A stretch of DNA of 64,000 nt, taken from Patescibacteria group bacterium. GTDB taxonomy: Bacteria; Patescibacteriota; Minisyncoccia; Moranbacterales; UBA2206. The DNA lies in assembly GCA_022709735.1 (NCBI GenBank), contig JAKLIG010000001.1, positions 192,586 to 256,585 on the forward strand. The letters are read 5' to 3'. Shown one piece after another: positions 5,288 to 59,400 of the stretch. The notes beneath the pieces are model-generated. The model saw only the letters and a list, made by a program, of their open reading frames with translations, was not told the origin of the DNA and searched no databases. The stretch's first letter is position 1. Each line of letters opens with the position of its first letter. The translations under genes were made by a program, and so were the position numbers.

Positions 5288-6970
5288 TTATTTTTCAATC
5301 CAAAACATCGTCGGCTCATTATTTTTATTTAAATCTATGCGCAAATTTTTGTTAAGCTGGGGGGTGCACAAGGATGGCCCATCGAAACACTGATCTCCTT
5401 TTCTGGGGACATAAATAATTATTTGATCCATGATTTTCTCTTCAATCAATTCTACATTTTTAATTTTATTAATATCGTGCATTTCTTTAAAACTGATATT
5501 ATTTTTATAAATAAGTGTTAAGGTAATCATTAAGCATACAACTGTTAAAAAATATTTAATGTTTTTTTCTTTGCTGATAAAATTATATATTCCGTAACTT
5601 ATTAAAATTCCGAAAAGAGAAAATAAATAGCCATATCCAAATCTCGGATTTGGTGCAGAAAAAAACCAAAACAAACAACCAATTAATGGAAAGGGGAGGA
5701 CAAATAAAAGAATATTTAAATCTTTTTTCTTTTTTAAAATAAAGCAAATAGCCATAACTAAAATTCCGACAATGGCCGTATATATCAAAACTTTATCATT
5801 GGCAATATTGTGAAGCCATGAATTTAGCCAATCCCAATTGCCCAAAACTTTATCTGGATTATCTTTGGGCTTTCTTGCCCAGCTTTTTACCCAGTTAGCA
5901 ATATTAGTAGCTTCATTAATCGAGACACCCCACTTGAAATTAAAATGTCCAAAAGTTGAAGGAAAAACGAGATATCCAGAGGAAATGATTCCTCTTATCG
6001 AATAAGGAATCCCTGCGATCAGCAAAATTATGCTAGCAAATATAAGCTTGGAATTATTTAGATTTTCTAAGGTTGATCCGATTTTTTTTTTCAATTTATT
6101 TCCAAAGATAAGGTGTGAAAACAAAATTAAAAAAATTCCAGCAAAATATGGAATTGCTGATAATTTTATAGTAACCGCATAAAAAGAAATTATAAGTGAA
6201 ACAAAAAGATAATTCACATTTTTTGTTTCAAAACCTTTTATTAATAAAAAAGTAATTAATAATGTTAGCAACATTATGGGAACATCAGGCGAGGGGGATG
6301 AAATAAATTTTGTAAGGCAATACGACCACGGGATAAAAGTTGTGAGAACGAAAACAGAAGAAAAATCTATCTTTTTCCTCCTTATCATTCGTAGTAAAGT
6401 TAGAAAAATTGAAGTTCCGTAAAAGAAAAATAAGATTGCATTTAAAATAAAGAACGGTGATTTTGTGACTAGTCTTAGTGGATAAATAATTGCAGCGTCT
6501 ATGAACCATAAGCTATTAAAACCGAACCTAATATGAAGATTCGCAAGTCCGAAAGGCAATGTAAAATTAGAAATCCAATTTATCATTGGCAGGTGGTATA
6601 ATCCAGTGTCATAAGCCCTCAAATCCATTAAAGACAAAATAGCGCAGTAAAAAAACAAAATTAATACAATTAGAATATTAACCCAGTGGCAAGATGGTAA
6701 TATATTTTTTCGATAAACAAAAAAAAGTATTATTCCAATAAGCAATATAATCGATGAAAAAACTGAGTTTAGCGGAATAAAAAAATTGAAAATTGTTCCA
6801 ATGACAGAAATAATCATTAAGCCTAAAGTTCCATAATATAAAAATTTAAATTCATCATCGATCTCGAAATATTTTAAATATTTTTTTACGAATTCACTTG
6901 CAAAACAACCCAAACCAAGGAGTGAGATTGTCCAGGCGAAAAATGAAAAGATTACGAATAATTGAATCAT
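5288..6970 (-). CDS. Polytopic integral membrane protein (possible glycan polymerase/GT-C-like, unassigned)
   Basis: 560 aa, with at least 10 hydrophobic helices throughout. No soluble catalytic motif recognised. Embedded between GT2 genes. Confidence 0.45.
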   Translation of the reverse strand: MIQLFVIFSFFAWTISLLGLGCFASEFVKKYLKYFEIDDEFKFLYYGTLGLMIISVIGTIFNFFIPLNSVFSSIILLIGIILFFVYRKNILPSCHWVNILIVLILFFYCAILSLMDLRAYDTGLYHLPMINWISNFTLPFGLANLHIRFGFNSLWFIDAAIIYPLRLVTKSPFFILNAILFFFYGTSIFLTLLRMIRRKKIDFSSVFVLTTFIPWSYCLTKFISSPSPDVPIMLLTLLITFLLIKGFETKNVNYLFVSLIISFYAVTIKLSAIPYFAGIFLILFSHLIFGNKLKKKIGSTLENLNNSKLIFASIILLIAGIPYSIRGIISSGYLVFPSTFGHFNFKWGVSINEATNIANWVKSWARKPKDNPDKVLGNWDWLNSWLHNIANDKVLIYTAIVGILVMAICFILKKKKDLNILLFVLPFPLIGCLFWFFSAPNPRFGYGYLFSLFGILISYGIYNFISKEKNIKYFLTVVCLMITLTLIYKNNISFKEMHDINKIKNVELIEEKIMDQIIIYVPRKGDQCFDGPSLCTPQLNKNLRIDLNKNNEPTMFWIEK

Positions 6971-17582: not shown

Positions 17583-18566
17583 ATGAAAAATAAAATACTT
17601 AATAAGGCTAAGAAAATTAAGGAAATTGTTTCAAGAAATAGAAAAAAATTAGAAATAACATTCTTGGTTTTTCTGATTGCAATTGCTATTTCAATTTTCA
17701 GTTTCAGCCCCTTGCGAAAAAATATTTCCGGTTTTATTTTGAAAAAGGCTTGTCTAAAATCAGCTCAAAATATTCCCGATGATTCATTAGGGGAAGAATA
17801 TATTGAAGATAATTCTGTAAAAAAAATGCCAGATCTTGTTATTGGAGCAATGGCTGATTTGCATGCAGAATCCAGAACATATGAGATGATCAGTACTTTT
17901 ACTAAAAAAGTACAAGAACGATTAGAAGAGGAAGGGAAAGCAGATTTTATAATTGAGTTAGGAGATTTTATAGAAAATAGAAACAAGTATGGGAAGGGTA
18001 TGAAAAAACAACCAAGAGAAGAAGGCCTAGCAGAATGGAAAAAAGCCGACTCAAGTTTTTTAGGATATACTCCTCGCTATCATGTAGTTGGAAATCATGA
18101 GATGTTCAGTTTTTTTAAAAATGATTACGAAGAACTAATTGGTCTTAATAGTTATTATTCCTTTTTGGTTAAGGGATATCAAATTATAGTTTTGGATTCA
18201 AATTACAACTTATTTTCTGGGCGAGATGTTGAGCTCAACAATGAAGAGGAGGGCGCTTATGCGGGAGCTATTCCCAAAGAAGAAATGCAATGGCTAGAAG
18301 AAAGGCTCAAGGAAGAAGATAAAAATATTATTTTTGTTCACCATCCCTTGTATAGTGTAAAAAAGAGCGTTGAAATCGAAAATTTACTTAAAAAATATAA
18401 CAAAAAGATAGTTTTAATTGCGAGCGGGCATAAGCATAAAACTAGAAGCCTTACTTTTGCAGGCATTGATTATATCGATATGCCCTCCCTGGAACTCCAA
18501 AAACAATATGCAATTATAAGCATAAAAGGAAAAAAATCTGAGGTTGAATTTTTGAATTTGCAATAA
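17583..18566 (+). CDS. Membrane-anchored calcineurin-like metallophosphoesterase
   Basis: 327 aa. N-terminal TM (LEITFLVFLIAIAISIFSF). MPE motifs ADLHAE, LGDFIEN, VVGNHE, FVHHPLY, SGHKH. Confidence 0.75.
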   Translation: MKNKILNKAKKIKEIVSRNRKKLEITFLVFLIAIAISIFSFSPLRKNISGFILKKACLKSAQNIPDDSLGEEYIEDNSVKKMPDLVIGAMADLHAESRTYEMISTFTKKVQERLEEEGKADFIIELGDFIENRNKYGKGMKKQPREEGLAEWKKADSSFLGYTPRYHVVGNHEMFSFFKNDYEELIGLNSYYSFLVKGYQIIVLDSNYNLFSGRDVELNNEEEGAYAGAIPKEEMQWLEERLKEEDKNIIFVHHPLYSVKKSVEIENLLKKYNKKIVLIASGHKHKTRSLTFAGIDYIDMPSLELQKQYAIISIKGKKSEVEFLNLQ

Positions 18567-23506: not shown

Positions 23507-25702
23507 ATGAATATTAGCAAAAGAAAAATAATATGCAGTCTGCTTTTTTTAATTGTGCTTTTGGGCGCATTTTTGCGGTTATATAAAATCGGAGGCGAAG
23601 CTTTTGCTCGTGATGAATTTTTCGATATCAACACTTCCTACGGATATTTCAAAACTGGGGAGTGGCTGGCTTGGGATTTCAATATGAACCAGCCTCTTGA
23701 AGCGGCCTTGCAAAAAGATTATAGCAATACTCGCGCCCAACTTTTCCGCATCCCGTTAGCATTAGCTTATAATTTTATGGAGCCAACCGAAGGTCATGCT
23801 AGGTTGATTAGTGTTTTTTGGGGGATTGTAAGTATTATTGCAATATATTTTATAACCCTATCTTTTACTGGGAATGCCTATGTCGCACTTCTGGCGGCGC
23901 TTCTTGTTGCCATTGGCGAATCGGAGATAATTTTTGGCCGACGACTTCGGATGTATTCTATGTTTTTTCCAATTTATTTGATTTTTTCTTGGTGCGTTTT
24001 TAAGATCTATGAATCTGTCTATAGTGGCAAAGTGATTATTTTTCAAAAAATCTACGATAAATTAAAGATTAATCCAATTTTTATTATTCCGGCGATGATT
24101 GTTGGTTTTGTAAGTTATGAAATTCACGAGCTTACAGTGCATATTGTTTTTACGCTTGTAGCATATTGCTTAATTTTGGCAGCGCTTAATTTCAAAAAAG
24201 AAAAATATTTTCTTAACAAATATACCCTAACACTTTTGGGTGGATTTTTTGGCTTTCTCGTCTTGAAAGTAGCATTTAGCGGACTATATAAGGATTTTGA
24301 TAAAGCTGTTAGTTTTTGGCAGGACAATTATCGGTGCTTTGGATTCTTTTTTACGGATTTTAGATATCTTTCTTTTGGCATATTGCTTTTTTCTTTGGGC
24401 GGACTATTTTTAGCTTTCAAACTCAAGCGCAAAAAAGAAGCGCTGTTTATTTTTCTTTCCGCAGTTGTTCCGCTTTTTTATGCCGTTTTTTCCTGGGTAA
24501 GAGAACCAGCCGCGCGCTATATTTATTTCATTCAATCATTTGGAATTATTTTTTCAGCTTCTGGCATTTATGCCGTTTATTATTTTTTAGCAGAAAGATT
24601 CGAGAATTATAAAAAAATAATTGCTGTGGTAATTTTAATGTCAACTTTTGCGCTACTTGATTTTTCATACATTACAGGCAAAGATAATCTTTATCAACAA
24701 AGAGAAACTTCTAATTTTATCGATTTTCGAAAAGTTTTTGCCGTAGCGAAGGAAAACATGAAACCGGGCGATGTGATGATTACAAGAGCCTATCGCAGTT
24801 TTTATTTTCCAAACTGGAAAGCGAAAGCGTATGATGTGAAAGCTTTGCCCTTAGAAAAACAAAATTGTCAGGAAATATTTGCCAAGATAATTTCCGAAAA
24901 TGAAAGCGGAATAGTAGTTCTGCCAGAGATTGATCATTTGTCAGTTTGTAAAAACGGACGGAAATATTTAGAAGATAATTTAATCAAAATCCCGTCACAA
25001 GTGAGTGGTGTAAATATTTATCGCTGGGATAAAAAAGGATTTCAAATAACAATTGCAACTGATTTGCACGCTGCAATGGGTCCGAAAGAAAAAGATATTT
25101 TTGGCGGAACAAAATGGAAAGAAAAAATGGACTATCTATTGGATAAGTCGAAAAATTCAGAATTTATCGCGATGCTGGGAGATAATATACAATCAAGAGA
25201 CGATCAAAGTTTTGAGGAATTGAAAAAGTATGAGCAAGAGTCGGGCAAAAAATTTATTTGGGTCAATGGAAATCATGATAAGGAGTTGGATCAAAATGGA
25301 GATCGAAGAGGTCTGTATATGAGCGGTCAAAAATATTATTATGTAGATCATAATAATTGGAGAATGATTGTTTTGTATAATCTTAAACAAAATAAAGATA
25401 AGGATTTTGATTGTTGGGAGATTGACAAAGAACAAATGGCTTGGCTGGAATCCACACTAAAAACTGAAAATGATAAGATTGTTTTTATGCATTGCCCTAT
25501 TTTTAGAGATGAGATTAAAAAAGAATTGCGCAAAAAATATTTACCACTGCATGATTTATTTAAAAAATATAATGTAAAATATGTATATGCTGGCCATTGG
25601 CACGAACAAGATATTGAAAAAATTTTTGATGATATTACCTATAGGGTTATTCCGATGATTGATGTTTATGATAAGCGGTATGAAATTTTGCAACTTAAAT
25701 AA
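23507..25702 (+). CDS. GT-C-like polytopic membrane protein fused to C-terminal calcineurin-like metallophosphoesterase (paralog 1 of 3)
   Basis: 731 aa. N-terminal about 400 aa with about 10 TM helices and a loop-1 ARDEFFDINTSYGYFKTGEWLAWDF motif. C-terminus has ITIATDLHA, LGDNIQ, GNHD, FMHCP, GHWHE (MPE motifs). Confidence 0.65.
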   Translation: MNISKRKIICSLLFLIVLLGAFLRLYKIGGEAFARDEFFDINTSYGYFKTGEWLAWDFNMNQPLEAALQKDYSNTRAQLFRIPLALAYNFMEPTEGHARLISVFWGIVSIIAIYFITLSFTGNAYVALLAALLVAIGESEIIFGRRLRMYSMFFPIYLIFSWCVFKIYESVYSGKVIIFQKIYDKLKINPIFIIPAMIVGFVSYEIHELTVHIVFTLVAYCLILAALNFKKEKYFLNKYTLTLLGGFFGFLVLKVAFSGLYKDFDKAVSFWQDNYRCFGFFFTDFRYLSFGILLFSLGGLFLAFKLKRKKEALFIFLSAVVPLFYAVFSWVREPAARYIYFIQSFGIIFSASGIYAVYYFLAERFENYKKIIAVVILMSTFALLDFSYITGKDNLYQQRETSNFIDFRKVFAVAKENMKPGDVMITRAYRSFYFPNWKAKAYDVKALPLEKQNCQEIFAKIISENESGIVVLPEIDHLSVCKNGRKYLEDNLIKIPSQVSGVNIYRWDKKGFQITIATDLHAAMGPKEKDIFGGTKWKEKMDYLLDKSKNSEFIAMLGDNIQSRDDQSFEELKKYEQESGKKFIWVNGNHDKELDQNGDRRGLYMSGQKYYYVDHNNWRMIVLYNLKQNKDKDFDCWEIDKEQMAWLESTLKTENDKIVFMHCPIFRDEIKKELRKKYLPLHDLFKKYNVKYVYAGHWHEQDIEKIFDDITYRVIPMIDVYDKRYEILQLK

Positions 25703-25720: not shown

Positions 25721-27244
25721 ATGAAAAAAATATCCTTGGTTGTGTTATTTATAATTATTTTGCTTGGTGCTGGGCTTAGAATTTATAATTTAGGCGAGAA
25801 ATCTTTTGATCGAGATGAATTTTTTGAGCTGAATTCTTCTTATGGATATTTCAAGACTGGGACTTGGGTAGCATGGGATTTTGGCAATGAGAAACCCTTT
25901 GAGGCGAGTTTGCAAGATAAAACCAGCACAGAACGAGCAGAAATTTATAGATGGCAGATAGCACAACTTTATCGATTTTTTGAACCCTCTGAAACAGTGA
26001 CTCGCTCAATTAGCGCTTTTTGGGGAATAATCAGTATAGCGCTGATTTATTTTGTAACTTTATATTTTACTAAAAATCACGGAATTGCGCTTTTAGCAGC
26101 ATTTCTTACGGCGATTGGCGAATCCGGAATGATTTATAGCCGACGCCTTCGGATGTATTCAATGCTGTTTCCCGCTTATCTTATTTTTTCTTGGTTAGTT
26201 TATAAATTCTATGAAGCTAAGTATGAAGGTAAGAATAAATTATTTGAATTTTTTTCAGATAAATTCAAAGTTAATCTTCTTTATTTCTTACCAGCGCTAA
26301 TTGCAGGGCTTATTAGTTACAATGTCCATATGCTCACGGCGAGTATTGTTGCTACGATAACTGCGTTTTCAATTTTCAGCTGGCTATGGTGGGAAAGAAA
26401 AGAAAAAATAAATAAATATTCCATAACACTAGCCTTGATTTTTATTGCTTATCTTTTTATAAGTCTGATTCCACAATTGGCCAAGTTTTATAAATCCTTT
26501 AAAAAGCAAGTAGAATTGTTCAAATTTAATCCAGATTATTTTATTGATTATTTTACTGATTTTAATTTTTTTATTCTAGGTTTTATTTTGATGATTTTTG
26601 GTGTTTGGTATTTGGCAAAAAAAATGGAAAAGAAAAAAGAAGCCTTGTTTCTTTTTCTTTCTGCTATTGTTCCGCTTATTTTTGCTATTTTTACCTGGGT
26701 AAGATTTCCAGCGCAAAGATACATTTATTTCGTCCAGTCTTTTGGAATAATTCTAATCGCGGTTGGAATTTATGCGGTTCTTTGTTATTTAAATATTTAT
26801 CTTAAAAATAGAAAAATAATTCTAGTACCATTTTTTATTCTAATGCTTATTCTTTTGATTGATTTTTCTTATTTTAAAAAAGAAAATCAAATCTATGCTC
26901 ATACAAAAAATTCATTTTATCCGAACTTTAGAAATATTTTTCCTTATATTTTGAAAAATAAAAAAGAAAGTGATGTTTTCATCACTCGCTCATATCGAAG
27001 TTACTATTGGCTAGGGGACAAAGTGAAAGTTTTCGATTTGCAAGCGCTTCCATTTGAAAAAAAGGATTGTGGAAAAATTGTCAGTGAAGCCATTGTCGAA
27101 AACAAAAGCGGTTGGTTTATTCTGCCTGACATCGACGAAGGATTTATTTGCAAGGAAGGAAGGGACTATCTTGGCAATAATTATAAAAAAATAGAAAATG
27201 AAAATATTCCCAATACTGTTTCAATTTACCGCTGGGGTGAATAA
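25721..27244 (+). CDS. GT-C-like polytopic membrane protein (paralog 2, lacks the phosphoesterase domain)
   Basis: 507 aa. Residue-by-residue paralogy with the N-terminal halves of 23507-25702 and 27251-29389 (DRDEFFELNSSYGYFKTGTWVAWDF, RRLRMYSMLFPAYLIFSW). Ends before the MPE domain. Confidence 0.65.
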   Translation: MKKISLVVLFIIILLGAGLRIYNLGEKSFDRDEFFELNSSYGYFKTGTWVAWDFGNEKPFEASLQDKTSTERAEIYRWQIAQLYRFFEPSETVTRSISAFWGIISIALIYFVTLYFTKNHGIALLAAFLTAIGESGMIYSRRLRMYSMLFPAYLIFSWLVYKFYEAKYEGKNKLFEFFSDKFKVNLLYFLPALIAGLISYNVHMLTASIVATITAFSIFSWLWWERKEKINKYSITLALIFIAYLFISLIPQLAKFYKSFKKQVELFKFNPDYFIDYFTDFNFFILGFILMIFGVWYLAKKMEKKKEALFLFLSAIVPLIFAIFTWVRFPAQRYIYFVQSFGIILIAVGIYAVLCYLNIYLKNRKIILVPFFILMLILLIDFSYFKKENQIYAHTKNSFYPNFRNIFPYILKNKKESDVFITRSYRSYYWLGDKVKVFDLQALPFEKKDCGKIVSEAIVENKSGWFILPDIDEGFICKEGRDYLGNNYKKIENENIPNTVSIYRWGE

Positions 27245-27250
27245 TTTTTT

Positions 27251-29389
27251 ATGAGTAATAAAAAAATCATTATAATTCTTTTGATAATTTTAGCGCTTGG
27301 CGCTTTTTTGCGTTTTTGGAAACTTGACCAACAACCTTTTGTAACGGATGAATTTTTGGATATCAATGCAACTTATGGATATTTCAAAACAGGAGAGTGG
27401 GTGGCATGGGATTTCAATCTTGATCAAGTGAGTGATAATTTGTATGCGCCAAGAGAGGAACGTGCTTGGATTTATCGTGCTCAAGTAGCGCAATTATTCC
27501 ATTTTTTTCCTTTGACGGAAGCAACTGCAAGGTCAGTGAGCGCCTTATGGGGAGTTTTTAGTATAATTATTTTATATTTTGTTTCGACTTATTTTACAAA
27601 AAACAAAACTATCGGGCTTATCTCGGCTTTTCTTTTTGCAGTGAGCATCGCCGGGATAACATTTGACCGGATGCTTCGAATGTACGCCATGTTTTTTCCG
27701 GTTTTTCTTCTTTTTTCTTGGTTTCTTTTTCGATTTTTTGAAGAAGAATATGCGGGTAAGGTCGCAATCATTAAGTTTGTTTGGAATAAATTTGGAATAA
27801 ATTTAAAGTGGTTTTTGCCAGCAACATTTTTTGGACTGCTAAGTTTTCATCTTCATCCGCTCACACTTAATATTGGTGTGGTTTTCGGTGTTTATCTCAT
27901 CATTCAATCCTGTGTGGCTTTTTATCAAAAAAGAACCATATTGAATAAATATACAGCCATTTTATTTTTAACATTACTTGGTTTGATTGCAGCGTATATA
28001 AATAATTCTCAAATATATTCGTTCTATTCCAAAAAAGATCTAATTGCTTTTGATCACGCAAGATGGCGATATTTGCAATCAGTAGCTTCAGATTATATAA
28101 ATGTTTTCTTAGCTTACGGGTTGATTTTTTTCGGTTTTTATGAGCTTAAGAAAAATATCAAAATTCAAAAAGAATCCGTTTGGCTAGTTTGTTGTTTTTT
28201 GGCGATAATTTTTTCAGCCGTATTTTTTTGGAATGAGGTTTTTGGTTTGCGTTTTATTTTCTTTGCGATGTCTTTTGGGATAATTTTGCTTTCAAGCGGA
28301 ATATATTTTTTGGCAGAAAAAAATGGAAAATATTTTCCCGCGTATCAAAAAAAAGTTTTTGTTGGTGTGCTAATGACGGCACTTTTGATTGTTCCAAATT
28401 ATGGTTATTTTTTTTCCAAAGAAAGTCCATATCGAAAAGATGAAACCAAGACTGACTATCGAGCATCTTTCCAATATTTTTTGGATAATAAGAATGAAGA
28501 TGATTCTTTGCTAACGCGAAATTTTCGTAGTTTCTACTACAAAAACGCCAAAGCTAAAATTATCAATAAGGAATGGAACAAAAAAATCAGCTTGGATGAA
28601 TTGAAAAAAATAATGACGGAAAATCCCAGTGGATGGATTGTGACAGGCGATCCAAAAGGGGACATGGAAAAAGACGCTTTGAAATATATAGAAGAAAATT
28701 CACTGGATAAAAAAGAAATTGGCGGAGTTCAAATTTATCATTGGAGTAATAAAGAATTTCAAATAACCATCGCCACTGATTTACACGCTGGGAAAGAGCC
28801 TATAGAAGGAGAAGGCTACGACCCAAGAAAATGGAAAGAAAAACTCGATTATTTAATGGGAAAATCAACCAATTCTAAATTTATAGTAATGGCTGGTGAT
28901 AATCAACAGAGTCCTAATTATGAAATTGCTGATTTACTTAAAGATTACGAAAAACAATCCGGAAAAGATTTTATTTGGGTTAATGGAAATCACGACGGCG
29001 ATATTTATATAAGTAATCAAAAGCATTATTATATAGATTATAATGATTGGAGAATGATTGTTTTATATAATCTTGATCCAAGCGATGATTATGATTGTGC
29101 AAAAGTTGACGAAGAGCAAATGGTTTGGTTGGAATCGATATTGAAAACTGACAAAAAGAAAATTGTTTTTTTGCATTGTCCGGTTTTTAGTAATGGCAAT
29201 GGAAAAAAAGAAGTGCGAGACAGATATAAAGAACTTACGGAGTTATTTAATAATAATAGCGTAGCTTATGTTTATTCTGGGCATTGGCATACTGGTGATT
29301 TTAGGACAAAAATAGATAATGTAGAATATAGGGTTCTTTTGCAGTTGGATTCTTATGGAAATTTTTATGATATTTTAAAACTAGAATAG
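27251..29389 (+). CDS. GT-C-like polytopic membrane protein fused to C-terminal metallophosphoesterase (paralog 3)
   Basis: 712 aa. TDEFLDINATYGYFKTGEWVAWDF. C-terminus has ITIATDLHAG, AGDNQQ, GNHD, FLHCP, GHWHTGD. Confidence 0.65.
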   Translation: MSNKKIIIILLIILALGAFLRFWKLDQQPFVTDEFLDINATYGYFKTGEWVAWDFNLDQVSDNLYAPREERAWIYRAQVAQLFHFFPLTEATARSVSALWGVFSIIILYFVSTYFTKNKTIGLISAFLFAVSIAGITFDRMLRMYAMFFPVFLLFSWFLFRFFEEEYAGKVAIIKFVWNKFGINLKWFLPATFFGLLSFHLHPLTLNIGVVFGVYLIIQSCVAFYQKRTILNKYTAILFLTLLGLIAAYINNSQIYSFYSKKDLIAFDHARWRYLQSVASDYINVFLAYGLIFFGFYELKKNIKIQKESVWLVCCFLAIIFSAVFFWNEVFGLRFIFFAMSFGIILLSSGIYFLAEKNGKYFPAYQKKVFVGVLMTALLIVPNYGYFFSKESPYRKDETKTDYRASFQYFLDNKNEDDSLLTRNFRSFYYKNAKAKIINKEWNKKISLDELKKIMTENPSGWIVTGDPKGDMEKDALKYIEENSLDKKEIGGVQIYHWSNKEFQITIATDLHAGKEPIEGEGYDPRKWKEKLDYLMGKSTNSKFIVMAGDNQQSPNYEIADLLKDYEKQSGKDFIWVNGNHDGDIYISNQKHYYIDYNDWRMIVLYNLDPSDDYDCAKVDEEQMVWLESILKTDKKKIVFLHCPVFSNGNGKKEVRDRYKELTELFNNNSVAYVYSGHWHTGDFRTKIDNVEYRVLLQLDSYGNFYDILKLE

Positions 29390-29390
29390 G

Positions 29391-30422
29391 TTAATATTTT
29401 TTAACACTCACCACCGCTGAATTTCCATTTATTTTTGCAACAGCGACAGATCGCTGATGATAAGCTGAAGGGATATTGTAATTTTTTACTCCGCCAAAAG
29501 TTATCACACCAAGCGTAGCTGGGTGCTTATGTCCGTTGGCAACCATAACAATTCTTTCTTTATTCTTGCTTAGAATTTTTTCAACTTTATTTTTATTAGA
29601 AAGATTCCATAGTGGATGATGGATGAAAATAAGATTTTTTGAACTTTGTTTGAGCTGGGCTTCCAGCCATTCTAGCGCGCCCGAAGTGATTGTTCCGGTG
29701 TAGATGAAGGTATCATCGTGTTTGGCATCAATATGATCTTCTTCGCCTGTATAATTACCATCCAAAACTATAATTTGGTATCCTTTAGCGTTGGCGGTAT
29801 AGCGATTTTTTCGGCCGGTTAAACTGGCAACATTATCTTTGCTCATACTTAAGAGTTCATGATTTCCAACAGTATGATAAGTTGGAAAGGCAGAAAGTAT
29901 GCCACTAGCTTTTCTATAATCAACCTCGGCGTCTTTTTTAGAAATGTATCCCTTAGTAGTTCGGCTTTCAATTAAATCTCCTAAATCTACGATAATATCC
30001 GGCTGCACTTGATTTCGGAAAACCCAGACAGCTGAATTGAGAGAAGAAAATCCATGCGCTTGTCCGGCATGAGCGTCAGCAATAATCCCAACAGTTAGAT
30101 CTGGTCGTGGGGCTTCTTCTTCGGAAGTTTCTTTTTTTGCGGTTTCTTCTGGGACAGTAGCATCTTTATTTGCGTCATTAGTTTTAACTTCTTCTTGGTT
30201 GCTCTCTGGCTTTATTTCTTGCTTTTCATTTTGAGAAGTCGCAATATTTTTTGGCTCCAAAATAATTTCGGCCGGAGCGGTTTTTTGCTCTTCCTGCTTA
30301 ACACCTAAAAATTTTTCAAAACTTTTTGGATATTGGTAGAAGAAAATAAAAGCAAGCACTACTAAGAGTGAAAGAAATGGCAATAAGTGAGATTTTATAG
30401 ATTTCTTTTTTAGCTCGTCCAT
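29391..30422 (-). CDS. Membrane-anchored calcineurin-like metallophosphoesterase with E/K-rich linker
   Basis: 343 aa. N-terminal TM LLPFLSLLVVLAFIFF, about 80-aa low-complexity E/K/T linker, then IIADAHAG, LGDLIE, VGNHE, FIHHPLW, NGHKH. Confidence 0.75.
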   Translation of the reverse strand: MDELKKKSIKSHLLPFLSLLVVLAFIFFYQYPKSFEKFLGVKQEEQKTAPAEIILEPKNIATSQNEKQEIKPESNQEEVKTNDANKDATVPEETAKKETSEEEAPRPDLTVGIIADAHAGQAHGFSSLNSAVWVFRNQVQPDIIVDLGDLIESRTTKGYISKKDAEVDYRKASGILSAFPTYHTVGNHELLSMSKDNVASLTGRKNRYTANAKGYQIIVLDGNYTGEEDHIDAKHDDTFIYTGTITSGALEWLEAQLKQSSKNLIFIHHPLWNLSNKNKVEKILSKNKERIVMVANGHKHPATLGVITFGGVKNYNIPSAYHQRSVAVAKINGNSAVVSVKKY

Positions 30423-31895: not shown

Positions 31896-32465
31896 TTAAA
31901 TTAAATTTCTTATTTCTTTGAAAATTTCTTCTTTTTCTTGGTTGCCATCAATTTTTTTCATATTCCAAGAAGAAAATTTTGCGTCATATAATTCTTTTTT
32001 CTTTTGAAGATATTCCATTCCCTGGTCCGGTTTTCTTTCCCGTTGCATTATCATTTCCGGATCAGCGTCAAGATAGACTGCAACGGCTGGTTTTGAAATA
32101 AATTTTTCGCAAGGAATGCGCTTGTCTTTTTTTGAGAGATAATAAATATTTATAATGCTGTCGTAGAAATAGCGGTCGCTTACTAGATAATCAAATTCTT
32201 GTTTCTCTAATTTTTTCAAAAGTCGTTTAAATCTGAATAAATCAATCATTAAAAATATTCTTCGAAGGATAATTTGAAAAAAATTAGCTTTTGCTACGCT
32301 CTTGCTATCGCTGCTTTTCTTTGTAGTGATTTTATTTGCCAAGGAAAATTCAATTGCATGAAAATAAAAAAACTTTTTGTTTTTTGAATTTAAATATTCT
32401 TTCAGTAATTCTATTTGGGTTGATTTTCCGCTGCCGTCAAGTCCGGAAATTGTGATTAGTTTCAT
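31896..32465 (-). CDS. Thymidylate-kinase-like P-loop nucleotide kinase (divergent)
   Basis: 189 aa. P-loop ITISGLDGSGKSTQIELLKEYL. DRY/DRH-like VSDRYFYDS. Tmk-like spacing, but LID/other regions are divergent. Confidence 0.5.
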   Translation of the reverse strand: MKLITISGLDGSGKSTQIELLKEYLNSKNKKFFYFHAIEFSLANKITTKKSSDSKSVAKANFFQIILRRIFLMIDLFRFKRLLKKLEKQEFDYLVSDRYFYDSIINIYYLSKKDKRIPCEKFISKPAVAVYLDADPEMIMQRERKPDQGMEYLQKKKELYDAKFSSWNMKKIDGNQEKEEIFKEIRNLI

Positions 32466-32472
32466 AATTTAA

Positions 32473-33777
32473 TTAATAAGTTAAAATTTCAATTGGTTCT
32501 AATTTTGCTACAAGTTTGATTATTTTATTTTTTTCCATTTCTTTAACTATTTTCTCAGCGTATTCTTTTTGTTTCTCTTTTGGAATACCCAATTCTTTGG
32601 CTTTCCCAATTTCATGATTAGCGGAAAAAAATGTTTCTTCATTTTGATCTGTTCCAACTCCGATATAGGCAATTTCGCTGGCAAAAGGGGAAACTAGCAC
32701 TGGTTCACCAGTTTGGGAAAAAAGCGCGTGAGAGGCCATTTTTGAGGGTCCCAGGGCACGATTAGCGCCATTTCGATGAATAGTGACCTTTCGACCAAAA
32801 TGCATTTCCTCGTCAAAATAAACATGCGGGGCGTCATAAAGAAGTTTAGTCGAAACTGCTCGAGCAAATATTTCTTCCAAGCCCCGATCAATTTCATAAG
32901 TTATCAAAGTTCTATTAGCAAAGCCGTAATTTGAAACAGCACGAAAGGCGGTATCAATATTTTTTTTATCAATCGGAGGAGATATTAATTTAATGAAAAA
33001 TAATATTAAGCGTTGAGAAAAGCTCTTAATAAATCTGGGTGTATAAAGAGATGCGGCATATCTTCCAACGATGCTTGATCCAGTATGCATAAAAAATAAA
33101 TACTGGCCGTTTCTAACTCTTAAAATTTTAGCCGAATTTTCATCTTCGACTGAAGACACTCGCATAAGATGAATAAAATGGCTGGAAGTGGCGCCTAAAA
33201 GTCCAAGTCTAAATTTTGCAATCCAAGAAATAATTTTTGGAATTGCGCCGGAAATTTCTTCTTTGGATATTTTTTTATCTCCAAAAAAATTCCCATGATG
33301 ATAAGTATTTTCAAATTCATTTTTTGTGCGAATTGTGAATTTTTCTTTGAGTGCCATGCTTCCGTGGCGAAAAATGTCAGAAACCATCTCTCCAGAAATT
33401 TTTGTCCCAATGATTTTTTTTGACGGAATATTTTTTTTGAGATTATCGAATAACTTTTTGATATTTTCTGCGGTCATTTCTATGTCATTTAAATCAGTCA
33501 AAACTACTCGCATTCCGCAATTAGGTGCGGCGTCGAGCATTTCCGGCAAAATATTTTCTGATGCCACTACGGAGCCAGTAGGATTTTTTATATTTAGTTT
33601 GGAATGGGCATCACTTAGAATCGCGATATGGTGAAAAATATTTTCATTTTCTCCTATTTTTTCAACTTTTTCCAAAGTGTCATCGCCGGAAAAAGTATTT
33701 TTAGCTGAAAACAAAAAAGCCGGAACCTTCATTTTTCCCGTTTGAAACTTTTTTTTATTCTCAGAAATATTTTCCAT
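32473..33777 (-). CDS. RtcB-family (RNA 3'-phosphate ligase-like) protein, divergent
   Basis: 434 aa. Colinear RtcB motifs: LSDAHSKLNIKNPTGSVVAS (compare PDxHxGxGxxIGxVxA), APNCGMRVV (compare DINCGVRL), GATSSHFIHL (compare GSGNHFLE), FMHTGSSIVGRY (compare HSGSRGLG), SNYGFANRTLI (compare ANYAWANRQ), IHRNGANRA (compare HRKGATRA), SANHEIGKA (compare SxxHGAGR). Several residues at canonical metal/GTP positions are substituted. Confidence 0.55.
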   Translation of the reverse strand: MENISENKKKFQTGKMKVPAFLFSAKNTFSGDDTLEKVEKIGENENIFHHIAILSDAHSKLNIKNPTGSVVASENILPEMLDAAPNCGMRVVLTDLNDIEMTAENIKKLFDNLKKNIPSKKIIGTKISGEMVSDIFRHGSMALKEKFTIRTKNEFENTYHHGNFFGDKKISKEEISGAIPKIISWIAKFRLGLLGATSSHFIHLMRVSSVEDENSAKILRVRNGQYLFFMHTGSSIVGRYAASLYTPRFIKSFSQRLILFFIKLISPPIDKKNIDTAFRAVSNYGFANRTLITYEIDRGLEEIFARAVSTKLLYDAPHVYFDEEMHFGRKVTIHRNGANRALGPSKMASHALFSQTGEPVLVSPFASEIAYIGVGTDQNEETFFSANHEIGKAKELGIPKEKQKEYAEKIVKEMEKNKIIKLVAKLEPIEILTY

Positions 33778-33920
33778 AATATTTAGACTTGCGCGCTTGT
33801 CTCGAAATTACTAAAGCGTAATTTTTATGCTTAAATTAGAATTCTTCTGGTTTACTTAAAATTAATATTTGCAAATAATGCTGGAAATTATTAATTTCTC
33901 GCCAAACATGCAAGTCCTGA

Positions 33921-40040: not shown

Positions 40041-40161
40041 GAGCTTTTATAGGCTTAAGAATTATACTTAATTCCTAGTTGATTATAGCTTAAAAATAAT
40101 TATTTGGCAAAGTAGTTTTTTATGAGATGACATAAATTGATTTTGCTATTACAATATAAGT

Positions 40162-41745: not shown

Positions 41746-43383
41746 ATGATAGCATATTTTACGGATTTTGTTAATACTTTAAACAAACCAAAACATTGGC
41801 TTCTTTTGGCGAATATTTTTTTTGTTTTGTTTTTGATTATTTTAAATAATCTAGGAATTATTCCTCTTCGAATGGGTGATTTTGCTTTTTTCGCAATTTT
41901 ATTTTTAGGCTTTGCGCTGTATCGTCCCGGCTGGGCATTTTTGTTTTTCATTGGAACGATTCCGCTGGAAAATATAAATTTAGCGCCAATGGAACTTGGA
42001 ATTTCAATTCGCCCATATCAATTTATCGGCGCGCTCACAATCACGGCGATTATCATTCGTTTGCTTTCTGGAAAACTAAATTTCAAATTAATTAAATTAA
42101 ATTTTGTAGATTATTTAGTGATTGTTATGATGTTGGCAGGATTTGTAAGCGCGATTGTTGCCAAGATAGAGACGCAATCAATTGCGTCTCTACGGTTGGA
42201 GATAATTTTTGCTACTTTCGTTTTTTTATATTTTCTGGTTCGAAATTACATTCAAAATTCGGAAGATCTCAAAAAAGTTATTCCATTTTTTCTAAGTTCT
42301 TCAGTTATTGTTGTGCTTTATGGTATTTGGCAAAATATTTGGTTTTTGCGAGGATTAAACAGTTTCGAAACAATGCCGGGAAGACCAAATGCAACTTTTA
42401 CCGAAGCAGATTGGTTGGGAATATTTATAATTTTATTTATTTCTGTTTCATATGTCTTAATTTATAGAATTATGAATTATGAATTAAGAATTAAGAAAAT
42501 TGGTTTATTCTTGCTTCTTTCTTCTTCCTTCTTACTTCTTATCTTGACTGTTTCGCGAAGCGCTTGGCTTGGAGTAATAGCAACTACGATTATATTTTTA
42601 TTAATAATTTTTACAAATTTGAGAATCAATCCAAAGAACTTGCCTGCCGGAGAGGCAGGTTGGCAGTGGAAAAAAACTATCCAAATGAAATTGATAATAA
42701 TTCCAGCGTTTATTATTGCAGTTTTGGCAGTTTATATTTTTCATCTGACAAATTTTCAATTATTTAATCGCGTTCAAAGCACAACTTCCGGATTGCAAAA
42801 AATTACAATTTCTTGCAATGTAGGGAACGAAAATTTTCGTTCCTTGCCTAAGGAAATTAATAATGTTTCCGAATTAGAAAAATATAATTGCCGGCATATT
42901 AATTTAGAAGAAATAAATTCTGAAAAAGCGCAAGGTAAATATGTTGCAGAAATTTATCGCAAAGATCCAAATGTTTCTATAAGAAGTGAAATTTATCAAA
43001 AATCCTGGCAAGAAGTTAAAAATCATTGGATTTTGGGCATAGGCTGGGGGAGTATTGGAAAAGTTTTAGGCCAAGACGAGCGAGGCATTAGCTTGAATTC
43101 TTCCAACATATTTCTAGAAGTATGGCTCGGCAGTGGAGTCTTGGGTTTTGCGTCTTTTTTGATCGTAATCGCGTATATATTATTGAGAGCGATAAAAAAT
43201 TATTATTTGTCAAAAGATGATTCAGAGAGGATTATCAGTTTATTGTTAATAGTTTCTTGGTTCGGTATTATTATCGCAAATTTTTTCAACGCCGGAATAT
43301 TCTTGGGATTTTTGTGGGTCTGGCTAGGTATTACGAACTACGAAATTAATACTAAATACGAAAATACGAAAAGTAGCGAATAA
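41746..43383 (+). CDS. O-antigen ligase/polymerase-family membrane protein (WaaL/Wzy_C-like)
   Basis: 545 aa, about 12 TM helices. Periplasmic loop with SRSAWLGVIATT (the R-x-AWLG signature of the Wzy_C/O-antigen ligase family). Confidence 0.65.
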   Translation: MIAYFTDFVNTLNKPKHWLLLANIFFVLFLIILNNLGIIPLRMGDFAFFAILFLGFALYRPGWAFLFFIGTIPLENINLAPMELGISIRPYQFIGALTITAIIIRLLSGKLNFKLIKLNFVDYLVIVMMLAGFVSAIVAKIETQSIASLRLEIIFATFVFLYFLVRNYIQNSEDLKKVIPFFLSSSVIVVLYGIWQNIWFLRGLNSFETMPGRPNATFTEADWLGIFIILFISVSYVLIYRIMNYELRIKKIGLFLLLSSSFLLLILTVSRSAWLGVIATTIIFLLIIFTNLRINPKNLPAGEAGWQWKKTIQMKLIIIPAFIIAVLAVYIFHLTNFQLFNRVQSTTSGLQKITISCNVGNENFRSLPKEINNVSELEKYNCRHINLEEINSEKAQGKYVAEIYRKDPNVSIRSEIYQKSWQEVKNHWILGIGWGSIGKVLGQDERGISLNSSNIFLEVWLGSGVLGFASFLIVIAYILLRAIKNYYLSKDDSERIISLLLIVSWFGIIIANFFNAGIFLGFLWVWLGITNYEINTKYENTKSSE

Positions 43384-44649: not shown

Positions 44650-45834
44650 ATGGCGTATTTAGGAAACAATTTTGACGCGAGAGAAAAAAATAAAGAGAAG
44701 TTTTATAAAAAGCGATGGTTCAAAATCTTTGTAGTTGTTGTTGTTATTCTGCTTTTGGGTGGAGGAATTTTTGCTTGGAAAACCGGAAGTATATTGAATA
44801 GAATTTCTAAAGGTGGGTTGCTCCAATCGCTGGTTAAAAATATTCCAGGAGTTTCAAACGAACTTAAGGGTGAAAAAGAAGGCAGAATTAATGTTTTGCT
44901 TTTAGGCATGCGAGGAGAAAACATTCCCGGAGGAGGGCTTTTGGCGGATACTATTATAGTTGCCAGTATTAATTCTAAGGAAAATAAGGCTTCTATGATT
45001 TCAATTCCGCGCGACTTGTATGTTAACAATCCAGCTTGGGGAAATAAAACTAAAATTAATGCGGTATATGCGGCTGGTGAAGAAAACGGCAAGAAGCAAG
45101 GACTGGAAGAAATGAAAAAAGTTGCGCAGGAAGTAACTGGGTTGCCAATACATTATGCAGCCAGTATAAATTTTGCTGGTTTCAAACAATTGATTGACGC
45201 AATTGGCGGAATTGAAATAACTCTTGAAAAGCCCTTTGAAGAATCGTTGCAATTTAACGAACCGCATGTTTGTGACAGTCGAGTTTTTACCGTTCCGACT
45301 GGAAAGTTTGAAATTAAAAAAAGAAACGGAAGAATTACTGCGCAATATCCTCTTTGCACCAATCCAAACAAAGAATGTGGAGGAAATTTTAAATTGCCAG
45401 CCGGCAAGCAAACACTCAATGGAGATCAAGCGCTTTGCTATGTGAGATCTCGAGTGACTTCCAGCGATTTCGAAAGAGCCAAAAGGCAACAAATAGTAAT
45501 TCAGTTGGTCAAGGATAAAATGTTAAGCGTTGGAACGCTTACGGATTTTTCAAAAGTGAATGCAATGCTTAATGCTCTGGGAGATAATGTTCGAATGGAT
45601 ATGCAACTTTGGGAAATGCAAAAGGGCTATGAACTTTATAAGACTGCTTCTAATTTGCAAATTTATCAGAGAGTTTTGGAAAACAGCGAGGAAGGTTTGC
45701 TATATAATCCGACTGATATGCCAAAAGAAGTTGGTTATATCCTTTTGCCAATTGGCGGAAATTATGATCGCATTCATGAAATGGCAAAAAATATTTTCAC
45801 TCTTCCAGCCCAGTCGGATATAAAGCCGAAATAG
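44650..45834 (+). CDS. LytR-CpsA-Psr (LCP) family glycopolymer transferase
   Basis: 394 aa. N-terminal TM. RINVLLLGMRGEN...LADTIIVASIN...ASMISIPRDLYV is the canonical LCP core. Confidence 0.85.
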   Translation: MAYLGNNFDAREKNKEKFYKKRWFKIFVVVVVILLLGGGIFAWKTGSILNRISKGGLLQSLVKNIPGVSNELKGEKEGRINVLLLGMRGENIPGGGLLADTIIVASINSKENKASMISIPRDLYVNNPAWGNKTKINAVYAAGEENGKKQGLEEMKKVAQEVTGLPIHYAASINFAGFKQLIDAIGGIEITLEKPFEESLQFNEPHVCDSRVFTVPTGKFEIKKRNGRITAQYPLCTNPNKECGGNFKLPAGKQTLNGDQALCYVRSRVTSSDFERAKRQQIVIQLVKDKMLSVGTLTDFSKVNAMLNALGDNVRMDMQLWEMQKGYELYKTASNLQIYQRVLENSEEGLLYNPTDMPKEVGYILLPIGGNYDRIHEMAKNIFTLPAQSDIKPK

Positions 45835-56434: not shown

Positions 56435-59400
56435 TTATTTTTTAACAAAATCCATGAACGCTCTATATTTTGGCGCTTCAGATGCGGGCTGATCCATATA
56501 TTCTAAAATTCCCCAATAGCCATATTGGTTGAAAGCGTTTATAAATTCAAAATTCATAAATATCCCTCCCCCATTGTCGAACCACCAGTTAAAATATTTT
56601 TTATATAAATCATACATTCTGGAATCTTTATTGGCTGCAGTAAATGTCGTGGACAGTGTGTCATTGTCTGCAATAAGACTCTGTCCCCCTTCGTAAGCGA
56701 TTAAATCGAGTTTATATGTATCGGCTAAATTTTTATGTTTAACTCTTCGGGGCTCCAAATATTCGCTGATATTTTTTTCCATCAGTGAAAAAAGTTCATT
56801 AACAGTTACGGAAGTGGAATAAGTTTTATTTTTTCCTTCTCCTGCGCTAAAATATGGAGCAACTGCCAAGGCCTCAACTTGGATTTTATCAGGATTGATA
56901 TCTGAATTATCATAAGCTTTCATTCTTTGTTCGGCATGCCAGAACAATCCGAATTGGCTGGAGATAACATTTATGACTCTGTCATCCCCCAATTCGTTTT
57001 CAAATACTTTGAATATTTCCAATGCTCTTTTGGTGTAAAAAGCATCCATCGGACCAATTTTACTGGCCACTATTTTACTATCCGTTTCTCCCATATATCG
57101 GGCATAAGTTGTCTGATGCCAAAAACCGGGAGCGGTGTTCCAAATTTCATTGGAATATTCGATATACACTTTCTTCCCGGATTTTAGTCGACTTTTGATT
57201 AATTTTGCCATTTCTCGGACATATTCATTATCTGCCAAATGAGGAACGCAAAACCATGCATCAGCCTCTGTTTTATTGGTGAAATCAATCAAATCTTCCA
57301 TCGGAACTCCTGGTTCAATGATTGATTGCCAACTTAAATTATTATATCCCTTGACGCTTAATAATTTAAGTTTAGCATCCACTCTTAAGTCCAAATAAAA
57401 ACTAGAGTCATCTATTTTTTCAATTTCCAAGCCGTATGCACTGTCAAAATTCTTTTCTTTTTGGGCGCCAGTTTCATCAATATAGGAAACACTCAAGGCG
57501 TAATTCGGTTTTAAATTTATTCTCTGTCCAGTTTCTAATTTGTGGGGAGCTTGAGCGGTTATTTTCAGGACATGTTCTTTTTTAAGCATTTTTTCTCCAG
57601 TATTTGCCAGCGATACATTAGCAGAACTTCCTTCAATAATTTTTTTCCAACTTCGATTAATTTTATCAGGCGTATTCCTGTCTTCCCAGCGCACAATATT
57701 TTGTCCATTGGTTTTTTGTTCGCCCATAAAACGAAAAGCTTTTGCTCCTTTCGCTAATTCAAAAACCTTTGGATAAAATCGATCAGCCTCTTCGTATCCA
57801 GGAATAATTAATCTGATATTTCTGACCGGATTGTTTTCGTCCGATTTCAACACATATAAATAAATGCCGGTTTTGTCTGAATTATCAATAGACACGGAAT
57901 TTTTAACGCCTCCTTGAGTGAAAATACTTTCCTTGCTCGCATTTCTGATTCTAATCTCCCCTGCTCCATCAAAAATCAAAGTATAATTTCCCGAAGGATA
58001 ATGCGATTGAGTGCTGGAAAAAACATGTACTCCTAGATGATAATCTTGCCCATTATATTGATAGGGAATTTTTTCAGTCGGATAGCCGTTTTCATTTAAT
58101 TTTGGAAGCGGAATTGTTCCCTTGGTATTTGAGTGAGTGATGGCTTTATCCGGATTATATTTAGTTGTGTAATAAACATCCCAAGGATAACTGGTCATTT
58201 CCATTGCATTTGGAGAGGTTATTCCGGTATCGTAATATTTGGATCCTATGTCGATATTTAATCCCATGCCCTGGCTCTTTGCATCAATGCTTATCGGAGT
58301 AGTATCACTAGGGATATTTACAGCGGGGATATTATCGTTTAAAACCGGTTCATTTATTAAAGTTGTGTCTGTATCCAAAATCGGAATATTATTATCAATC
58401 GGTTCGCCGATTAAAGTTGCATCTATATTTGAAGCATCCTTTTCTTCTGTGGGTAGGATTTTTTTAGTAAAGCTATAAGTATTTTCAAACTTATTATTCT
58501 CCGGATCAATTGCTTTTTCCAATTTAGCAATTTTACTGTTGAAATCAACTATTTTTGCTTGATTTTCTTCAATTGTTTTTTTAAAATCAGCTATTTTTTT
58601 GTCCCGTTTTTCTTTGGTATCCGTGTTTTCTAATTTAGTCTTAAGCTCATCAACTTTTTTCTGAAATTCTTCCCTATCTTGTTTAATATTGACTAATTGT
58701 TCATTTTCTGTTTTTGCTATTTTTGCATCCAAGTTTGCTACTTTGGCTTGGTTTTTTTCAATTGATAATGTTACATTCGCAATCCGATCGGCAGAAGCAT
58801 TTTTGGCTGTTAAATCAGCTAATTTTGCCTTAAACTCATCAACTTTTTTTTGAAAATCATCCCTGGTTTTTTTGAGCGTGACTAATTGTTCATTTTCTAT
58901 CGCGGCTATTCTTTTATCAATTTCTACTATTTTAGCTTGAGCTTTTTCAAGCTCACTTTTTATTCCGGCAGCTACTTTCTCTAATTCTTCCGGACTGTTT
59001 TTCAGATTTAATTCAATTAGCGTAGCGTTATATCCATCAACATTTTTTTGCAAAGAATCCCTTTTTTTTATATGATTAGCCAATAGCTCTGCATTTTTTC
59101 CGCCATCATCAGCTGTTCCATATATTTTTAAATATTGGTTTTGTTCGGCTAAAAAAGTTAGTTTTGTTTTTTCTTGAGATTTTTTTGTTAGATCAATTGT
59201 CTGTTCTTCTCCTCCTTGCCATTGAAATTTAGCAGAGTTAACATATTTTCCGCATCTTATAGCTACGGATTTTTTTTTATCAAATGATCCTCCTGATGGA
59301 TCCGCAATACATTGATTGTCGGGTACGGCAATACTTGCTTTGGAAAAAAGACTCCACTCGGCTGATACTGACCAAATTATGGCGGCAGCAGCGCCAGAAA

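Follow-up and report, generated by a model that had tools for sequence, protein, structure and literature searches.

A divergent RtcB-family protein is a fixed part of a glycan operon in Candidatus Moranbacteria and has an active site that looks remodelled

What place does a homolog of the RNA ligase RtcB have among genes for a surface glycan? The question is raised by a stretch of DNA of 64,000 nucleotides (the window, at its full length) from a Patescibacteria group bacterium (NCBI GenBank assembly GCA_022709735.1, contig JAKLIG010000001.1, positions 192,586 to 256,585 of the forward strand). An earlier reading of this stretch, made from its letters (the sequence-only reading), had placed a 434-aa RtcB homolog and a 189-aa thymidylate-kinase-like (Tmk-like) protein in a minus-strand glycan operon, and this was borne out: both open reading frames (ORFs), their strand and their glycan context are as described (Table 1). 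Every RtcB motif that had been listed is present, in order, in the 434-aa protein, and the substitutions of HGAGR by HEIGK and of H(S/T)GSRG by HTGSSIVG are real. We report here that this RtcB subfamily is a fixed, single-copy part of the glycan operon in Candidatus Moranbacteria (80 species-level loci), that its adjacency to glycan genes is not a matter of chance, and that the active site in the clade of the window copy looks remodelled under selection.

Although divergent, the 434-aa protein truly belongs to the RtcB family. The profile search placed it inside the family and not outside it, with 146.2 bits against the Pfam model RtcB PF01139 (cut-off 27; E 2e-42; residues 41-420), and its residues 15-394 could be aligned with the Pyrococcus horikoshii RtcB of the PDB at an E-value of 4e-27 and 23% identity. 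The AlphaFold (AF2) model of the protein has a pLDDT of 92.7, and in a Foldseek search with this model the significant PDB matches were RtcB structures only, with template modelling (TM) scores of 0.77-0.83; the match to 4dwq has a TM score of 0.83 and an E-value of 3e-31. The scores for the NCBIfam RtcB equivalog models are under the cut-offs (NF007153, 42.8 versus 407 bits; TIGR03073, 29.2 versus 271.8 bits), and the database name of the protein is "RtcB family protein", nothing more specific. When the protein was used as a query in 1.84 billion representative proteins, only 681 matches had an E-value of 0.001 or less, and 30 one of 1e-30 or less. Judged from these matches, the family is small and isolated; it is an RtcB subfamily specific to bacteria of the Candidate Phyla Radiation (CPR).

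For the survey of the neighbourhood, one genome per GTDB species was scanned, and 80 loci were kept, one per assembly, with Moranbacteria or Parcubacteria as the label of nearly all of them; the neighbours were counted by tblastn with the proteins of the window over 79 non-redundant loci. RtcB orthologs of 35-76% identity are surrounded by a conserved gene order, which is shared by the two clades of the family described below: glycosyltransferase of family 2 (GT2), glycosyltransferase of family 4 (GT4), DUF6541 protein, small protein, a second GT4, RtcB, Tmk-like protein and MOP flippase. In the gene-context look-ups of related loci, a UDP-glucose dehydrogenase gene and a small ORF stand ahead of GT2. 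The GT4 gene next to RtcB (GT4b; the other is GT4a) is directly upstream of it, on the same strand, in all 74 loci that have enough upstream sequence (74/74). The estimated gap between the two has a median of ~55 nt, being <=60 nt in about half of the loci and <=10 nt in 12, and in some related loci the gene calls abut or overlap. Moreover, in one locus (L053:8855-11485; P0389) GT4b and RtcB form a single ORF of 886 aa with no stop between them, and the same fusion is found as a five-member protein cluster in a public collection. The expectation that orthologs would keep the GT4 and flippase neighbourhood, as opposed to a random adjacency, thus held in about 80 species-level genomes.

Downstream of RtcB, 56 of 64 loci have the Tmk-like gene, and in 36 of these the distance is at most 300 nt; the flippase gene follows the Tmk-like gene directly in 55 of 59 loci, with some overlapping gene calls. 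In four loci (L024, L049, L062 and L076) extra genes, amounting to several kb in some cases, part RtcB from the Tmk-like gene, which stays with the flippase. The cluster therefore contains two tight pairs, GT4b-RtcB and Tmk-like-flippase, and there is no RtcB-kinase cassette; the proposal that RtcB is partnered with the kinase was not upheld, as RtcB is locked to GT4b and the Tmk-like gene to the flippase. No Archease, RtcA, PrfH or Ro, that is, no such RNA-repair partner, was found in any locus examined, and a PADLOC search gave no hit for RtcB and only weak P-loop hits for the Tmk-like protein. As a separate observation, other genes are occasionally found inside the cluster, such as one of the 23S_rRNA_IVP family that separates the RtcB and Tmk-like genes (L006:9556-9936) and an HD-domain gene between GT4a and DUF6541 (L105:2191-2838).

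In order to compare active sites, the residues of the P. horikoshii enzyme (Pho) were mapped via alignments, the numbering was checked against literature positions, and the roles of the residues were taken from published work (PMC9745838, PMC8051266). In Pho RtcB, Cys98, His234 and His329 are the ligands of metal M1, Asp95 and His203 are those of M2, and His404 is the nucleophile that forms His-GMP, whereas guanine is contacted at N1/N2 by Glu206 and at O6 by Lys480 (PMC9745838). Asn202 contacts the oxygen that bridges the alpha and beta phosphates as well as the 5'-OH, and Asn330 the gamma-phosphate (PMC9745838, PMC8051266). Arg238 contacts the first two phosphodiesters of the 5'-OH strand, and Gln194, Arg190 and Asn202 provide further contacts to the 5'-OH polynucleotide (PMC8051266).

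Four metal ligands and the nucleophile are retained in the window protein, which has, in addition to the four motifs listed in Table 1, the motifs DAH (residues 56-58), NYGFANR (283-289) and HRNGANRA (334-341). The three M1 ligands correspond to C87, H231 and H318, the M2 ligand His203 to H200, the nucleophile His404 to H388, and the D-x-H motif Asp65/His67 to D56/H58. Pho Asp95 is aligned with Ala84, and an invariant Asp82 stands two residues upstream, in a D-x-x-x-N-C pattern that is also seen in many other bacterial RtcBs. C87, H200, H231, H318, H388, D82, H58, R335 and N336 are invariant in 61 sequences from both clades. It had been suggested that several canonical metal- and GTP-binding residues are substituted; this applies to the GTP-binding residues, but the metal ligands C87, H200, H231 and H318 and the nucleophile H388 do not vary.

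The contacts to the substrates are a different matter. The guanine contacts are lost by the changes of Glu206 to His and of Lys480 to Thr, and two triphosphate contacts by those of Asn202 to Ser199 and of Asn330 to Val319. As regards the 5'-OH strand, a Ser stands where Pho has Arg238, the position of Gln194 falls within a deletion of 4 residues, and the change of Asn202 to Ser counts here as well. Pho Gly405-Ala406, following the nucleophile, are Glu-Ile in the window protein, and the segment Pho 409-440, including Arg412, is deleted right after SANHEIGK. Equivalents of Arg238, Gln194, Lys480 and Asn330 are missing from the whole family, while the window clade is additionally without Asn202, Glu206, Gly405/Ala406, an aligned equivalent of Tyr451 (a further guanine contact in Pho) and the Pho 409-440 segment; its position 206 is variable (H, S, Y, K, T or C). 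According to these alignments, the window copy is devoid of every guanine contact and of two triphosphate contacts and has kept its Cys and His metal ligands and nucleophile His. With the canonical RtcBs (P. horikoshii PH1602, E. coli RtcB and human RTCB) it shares the fold, the order of the motifs, the Cys/His/His of M1, the His of M2 and the nucleophile His; it differs from them in the missing guanine, triphosphate and 5'-OH-strand contacts, in the missing 409-440 segment, in the apparent displacement of the metal-binding Asp by two residues, and in the position of its gene in a glycan operon without Archease or RtcA.

The family falls into two clades. The members of the window clade have 430-490 aa, are 48-76% identical to the window protein and carry the motifs S-H-F, A-P-F and H-E-[IL]-G-K. 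Those of the majority clade (e.g. P0030, P0038 and P0070) have ~497 aa, are 38-44% identical to the window protein, and carry N-H-F-x-D, P-S-S-M and H-G-T-G-[RK]. This ~497-aa Moranbacteria clade is the positional ortholog of the window copy, in the same operon with the same neighbours, and shares with it the DxAPNCGMR loop and the loss of Arg238, Lys480 and Asn330; unlike the window protein, it keeps both of the segments that are deleted there, as well as the Tyr451 equivalent. By sequence, the window copy is a derived minority form of a larger, more canonical-looking family in the same operon.

The rate of change of each protein was compared with the majority-clade locus L028 as reference, and a ratio was calculated of the identity in the window's clade to that in the majority clade. 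RtcB is the most conserved protein of the cluster in the majority clade, with a mean identity of 64%, and its identity falls to 40% in the window's clade, giving a ratio of 0.63. For the seven neighbours the ratios are between 0.86 and 1.08, namely 1.01 for GT2 (majority-clade mean identity 63%), 0.90 for the flippase (59%), 1.05 for GT4b (53%), 1.08 for the Tmk-like protein (51.5%), 0.86 for GT4a (50.9%), 0.86 for DUF6541 (47.2%) and 0.99 for the small protein (40.1%). The burst of change on the window branch is therefore confined to RtcB. The RtcBs of the derived clade share 66-74% identity with the window protein, which is similar to the values of GT4b and DUF6541 and higher than that of the Tmk-like protein, and the new motifs S-H-F, H-E-[IL]-G-K and A-P-F are conserved among clade members down to 44-49% identity. 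Because the metal and His residues are invariant in the 61 sequences and the new motifs are conserved, the active site of the window clade looks like one that has been remodelled under selection, and not like that of a decaying gene. An intermediate (P0065; L106:8001-9470, 489 aa), encoded in the same operon, has SHF and HEIGK without the two deletions, which suggests that the switch of motifs took place before the deletions. Since the guanine and triphosphate contacts are replaced and two surface segments are deleted, we infer that the nucleotide specificity of the window clade, or its need for GTP, has changed.

Two members depart from this pattern. One HEIGK-group relative in the representative library (P0248, 501 aa) has YEIGK, in which Tyr replaces the nucleophile His, and is also without the equivalents of His203, Asp65 and His67, with Cys98, His234 and His329 kept; from its sequence, it may be a pseudoenzyme. 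In another HEIGK-clade locus (L014:10001-11306) the RtcB gene is split over two reading frames near position 10990 of a long contig, and this frame break is probably a sequencing error and not decay.

The nearest RtcBs outside the family were found in two loci (L086:240-2853 and L087:6154-8645) and in 17 metagenome loci (L088-L104), and are 61-67% identical to one another. Their motifs are HGAGK, GNHFLD and DTAPNCG, and they are also without Arg238 and Lys480. None of the glycan neighbours is present around the RtcB gene of this sister clade. Directly upstream of it, on the same strand, a YvcK/GlmR-type gene of the CofD family is found in 13 of the about 15 loci that have upstream sequence (TIGR01826, 272 bits versus a cut-off of 196). 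YvcK/GlmR is reported to bind UDP-sugars and to be tied to the supply of cell-wall precursors (PMC5482804). This neighbour implies that in both CPR lineages the RtcB subfamily accompanies nucleotide-sugar or envelope genes, and not RNA-repair genes. Genes for EF-P and a PEGA-domain protein lie downstream of RtcB in the sister clade, on the other strand.

Canonical RtcB transfers GMP onto its His and then onto a 3'-phosphate, giving R-O-P-P-G, and in the last step the attack of a 5'-OH yields the phosphodiester and releases GMP (PMC9745838, PMC8051266). The kept Cys and His metal ligands and nucleophile His, the loss of the strand and guanine O6 contacts, the lock to GT4b and the strong selection together point to the same chemistry carried out on a phosphate ester of the glycan pathway. 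Our preferred reading, to which we give a little less than an even chance, is that the protein is an RtcB-type nucleotidyl- or phosphoryl-transfer enzyme recruited to glycan assembly, and we infer that its substrate would be a phosphate ester other than RNA. The active-site His would accept a nucleotidyl (or phosphoryl) group from a nucleoside triphosphate and hand it on to a sugar, lipid or glycan intermediate that bears a phosphomonoester. This would yield a nucleoside-diphosphate-linked, pyrophosphate-activated species, which either could serve the adjacent GT4b as a donor or could go on to form a phosphodiester. A phosphorylated or nucleotide partner would most likely be supplied or recycled by the Tmk-fold protein, whose gene is coupled to that of the flippase. 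In a more radical form, which we regard as doubtful, the GT4-locked RtcB fold would work outside nucleic-acid metabolism: it would nucleotidylate a phosphomonoester of a sugar, lipid or glycan through the active-site His, and so make an NDP-activated donor or a phosphodiester link in a surface polymer. In the HEIGK clade of the window, the nucleotide or the substrate would have been switched.

Two known cases bear some likeness to such a reaction. In the synthesis of F420, CofC and CofD guanylylate a phosphomonoester, and the phospho-group is then moved to a hydroxyl with release of GMP; the chemistry resembles the second and third steps of RtcB on a small molecule, as an analogy only, and none of these enzymes is encoded in the window, the neighbour in the sister clade being of the YvcK/GlmR subtype and not an F420 enzyme. 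The RtcB paralog RtcB3 of Myxococcus xanthus reportedly caps 5'-phosphate ends of DNA and RNA; it would be a precedent for the transfer of GMP by an RtcB paralog to a phosphomonoester other than an RNA 3'-phosphate, but the substrate is still a nucleic acid.

Several points weigh against the recruitment of the enzyme to glycan assembly. To our knowledge, no RtcB has been shown to act on a substrate that is not a nucleic acid. A family-invariant Arg is aligned with the strand-contacting Pho Arg190 by HMMER, although the MAFFT alignment disagrees. Arg238 and the Asp at -3 are missing in many bacterial RtcBs outside glycan contexts as well, so their loss is not specific to recruitment; for this reason the change of Asp95 to Ala and the loss of Arg238, considered as signs of recruitment, were down-weighted after a wider representative set had shown both in many bacterial RtcBs. 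The missing His of P0248 fits catalytic decay as well as a new function. The GT4b-RtcB fusion is limited to one lineage, and its nearest relatives (88% identical) are unfused. Finally, the conserved order is suggestive and not proof, as CPR genomes keep functionally mixed operons.

As had been proposed, the 189-aa protein is thymidylate-kinase-like: it scores 45.7 bits against the Pfam model Thymidylate_kin PF02223 (cut-off 27) across its full length, and all 50 of the 50 best PDB matches of its AF2 model (pLDDT 89.6) are thymidylate kinases, with TM scores of ~0.7 and 18-26% identity. It is 26% identical to Thermotoga maritima Tmk over the full length. With Tmk it has in common the fold, the length, a P-loop with Asp (GLDGSGKST), the DRY motif D97-R98-Y99 and the LID arginine R142, and these motifs are invariant in the family. 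It is important to mention, however, that its score is under the equivalog cut-off (TIGR00041, 51 versus 83.25 bits). In canonical Tmk, the REPGGT loop and the S-x-A-Y-Q that follows DRY shape the dTMP site. In the Tmk-like protein, REPGGT is replaced by F35-H36-A-I-E-F and AYQ by D102...N106-I, and F35-H36, D102 and N106 are family-invariant. Moreover, its helix 60-88 (window 32202-32288) is longer than in Tmk, very hydrophobic and basic (ANFFQIILRRIFLMIDLFRFKRLLKKLEK), and contains the family-invariant residues R68, D75, R78 and F79. It could serve as a surface towards the membrane or a lipid substrate, in keeping with the coupling of the gene to that of the flippase.

We consider it probable that the Tmk-like protein is something other than the housekeeping dTMP kinase. 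The opposite view, that it is this kinase, merely divergent as CPR proteins are and with no special link to RtcB or to glycans, is in our estimate somewhat improbable. It agrees with the profile and structural matches and the retained P-loop Asp, DRY and LID Arg, with the name dTMP kinase used by JGI for the family (NCBI has "hypothetical protein"), and with a tblastn search with T. maritima Tmk over 1.67 Mb of Moranbacteria sequence, restricted to the flanks of the cluster, which returned the Tmk-like gene itself only and no second tmk. It is opposed by the equivalog score, the invariant residues in place of the dTMP-site motifs, the longer helix, and the position directly before the flippase in 55/59 loci with overlapping gene calls. 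The Tmk-like protein did not accelerate when RtcB did (ratio 1.08), which argues against a function tightly matched to the nucleotide of RtcB.

As to RtcB itself, the alternative that survives best, although we consider it unlikely, is that the protein still joins or caps the ends of RNA or DNA, for housekeeping or under stress, and that its gene merely resides in a long-conserved mixed operon of the kind found in streamlined CPR genomes. All characterised RtcBs act on nucleic acids (PMC10630183), the fold, the Cys and His metal ligands and the nucleophile His are intact in the family, and the majority clade retains NHFxD, HGTG[RK] and the Tyr451 equivalent; the invariant Arg aligned to Arg190 and the absence of Arg238 from other bacterial RtcBs are also in its favour. 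Such a role is harder to reconcile with the linkage to GT4b in all 74 testable loci, some of whose gene calls abut or overlap, and the fusion in one lineage, with the lack of Archease, RtcA, PrfH and Ro, and with the missing Lys480 (guanine O6) and Arg238 and Gln194 (5'-OH strand), the window clade being without any guanine contact.

It is less probable still that the window-clade protein is no longer an enzyme and, its GTP pocket having decayed, serves as a structural or regulatory partner, e.g. of the adjacent GT4, with its histidines holding a structural metal site. The RtcB-specific burst (0.63 versus 0.86-1.08 for the neighbours), the loss of all guanine and two triphosphate contacts, the unconstrained position 206, the two deletions, and the Tyr at the nucleophile position and missing His203 of P0248 could all be explained in this way. 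Nevertheless, C87, H200, H231, H318 and H388 are invariant in all clade members examined with their context, the within-clade conservation of RtcB equals that of the neighbouring enzymes, and new motifs conserved down to 44-49% identity indicate that the pocket was remodelled, not left to decay. The last alternative, a mobile RNA-repair cassette of RtcB and kinase recently inserted by chance into the glycan operon, as the sequence-only reading had allowed, has in its favour the 7 nt between the two genes in the window and the P-loop polynucleotide kinases that accompany RNA ligases in known repair systems, but is effectively excluded by the synteny survey, since about 80 species-level genomes have the arrangement in common, with protein identities of 35-76%, the GC content equals that of the flanks, the Tmk-like gene follows the flippase and not RtcB when the two are separated, and neither protein is linked to a known defence system, as the PADLOC results show.

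Whereas the fold family was already known, the conserved glycan context and the rebuilt nucleotide pocket, the latter as read from the alignments, are new: a whole bacterial lineage keeps one RtcB gene tied to one glycosyltransferase in a surface-glycan operon. In the literature we found no paper that connects RtcB with glycan clusters, with Tmk-like kinases or with CPR bacteria. If the recruitment to glycan assembly is correct, the RtcB fold would gain its first substrate that is not a nucleic acid, and envelope biosynthesis a route not known before to sugars in activated form or to glycans joined by phosphodiesters; it would also offer a way into the surface biology of CPR cells, of which almost nothing is known. 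If the protein is still an RNA ligase, the family would offer natural variants for the study of GTP and substrate recognition by RtcB.

The genes of the operon are listed in Table 1. Nine minus-strand genes, from 39725 down to 29391, make up the run, and the gaps between them, from GT2 to the metallophosphoesterase in order, are 81, 2, 6, 217, 143, 7, 6 and 3 nt. The gaps of 3-7 nt described before are thus correct for the three junctions downstream of RtcB (7, 6 and 3 nt), but not for that between GT4b and RtcB, which measures 143 nt; in a terminator scan, this spacer contained no terminator-like site. The best promoter-like match of the run, a consensus match only, is at 40082-40110 (minus strand), upstream of GT2. 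The promoter scan of the window was uninformative (53 promoter-like sites versus 41.9 +/- 5.6 expected), and terminator-like sites in the window are fewer than expected. The GC content is ~33% throughout the window, including the RtcB and Tmk-like region and its flanks, and neither a tRNA nor an Rfam family was detected when the window was scanned for them. The metallophosphoesterase has a counterpart in the closest related loci only.

Table 1. Features of the RtcB locus and of its surroundings, with coordinates in the window.
Feature	Coordinates	Strand	Remarks
GT2, C-terminal membrane helices	38736-39725	-	Heads the run; in NCBIfam it matches AglJ and polyprenyl-phosphate hexosyltransferase models best
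GT4a glycosyltransferase, 362 aa	37566-38654	-	
DUF6541/DUF1616 polytopic membrane protein, 643 aa	35632-37563	-	Conserved in the cluster
Small protein, 116 aa, N-terminal hydrophobic segment	35275-35625	-	Conserved in the cluster; without a significant match to any family
GT4b glycosyltransferase, 378 aa	33921-35057	-	Directly upstream of RtcB
GT4b-RtcB spacer, 143 nt	33778-33920	-	
RtcB-family protein, 434 aa	32473-33777	-	Derived SHF/HEIGK clade; Pfam, PDB alignment, AF2, Foldseek
DAAPNCGMR, residues 82-90	33508-33534	-	Cys87 (Pho Cys98, bridging metal ligand), Asp82, Ala84
SSHFIH, residues 198-203	33169-33186	-	His200 (Pho His203); Asn202 to Ser, Glu206 to His
HTGSS, residues 231-235	33073-33087	-	His231 (Pho His234); Arg238 to Ser
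SANHEIGK, residues 385-392	32602-32625	-	His388 (Pho His404); GAGR to EIGK
Thymidylate-kinase-fold P-loop protein (Tmk-like), 189 aa	31896-32465	-	Pfam, PDB alignment, AF2, Foldseek
MOP-superfamily flippase (Wzx/MurJ/SpoVB-like), 487 aa	30426-31889	-	
Membrane-anchored calcineurin-like metallophosphoesterase, 343 aa	29391-30422	-	Last gene of the minus-strand run
Wzy_C protein	41746-43383		
LCP protein	44650-45834		

The operon is part of one large envelope and glycan island that occupies the first 46 kb of the window (1-46663) and contains genes for GDP-mannose 4,6-dehydratase, epimerases, many GT2 and GT4 enzymes and PMT-like proteins. Parts of a Wzx/Wzy-type cluster are present, namely the MOP flippase, GT2 and GT4 genes and a Wzy_C-type protein, together with an LCP protein. 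A Pfam scan of the island ORFs of at least 120 aa gave no initiating phosphoglycosyltransferase of the Bac_transf or MraY/WecA type; it may be elsewhere in the genome.

Some other features of the window deserve mention. Four calcineurin-like metallophosphoesterase domains are found in the island (17583-18566, 23507-25702, 27251-29389 and 29391-30422), two of them as the C-terminal part of large polytopic membrane proteins of 712-731 aa, and such a concentration of phosphoesterases is unusual for a glycan locus. In a protein of 561 aa (6987-8672), a GT2 domain and a GtrA-like membrane domain are joined in one chain to a methyltransferase domain at the C-terminus. Three large ORFs of 560, 507 and 1032 aa (5288-6970, 25721-27244 and 56435-59533, respectively) have no Pfam match, and the 507-aa ORF is similar to the N-terminal membrane part of the adjacent 712-aa protein.

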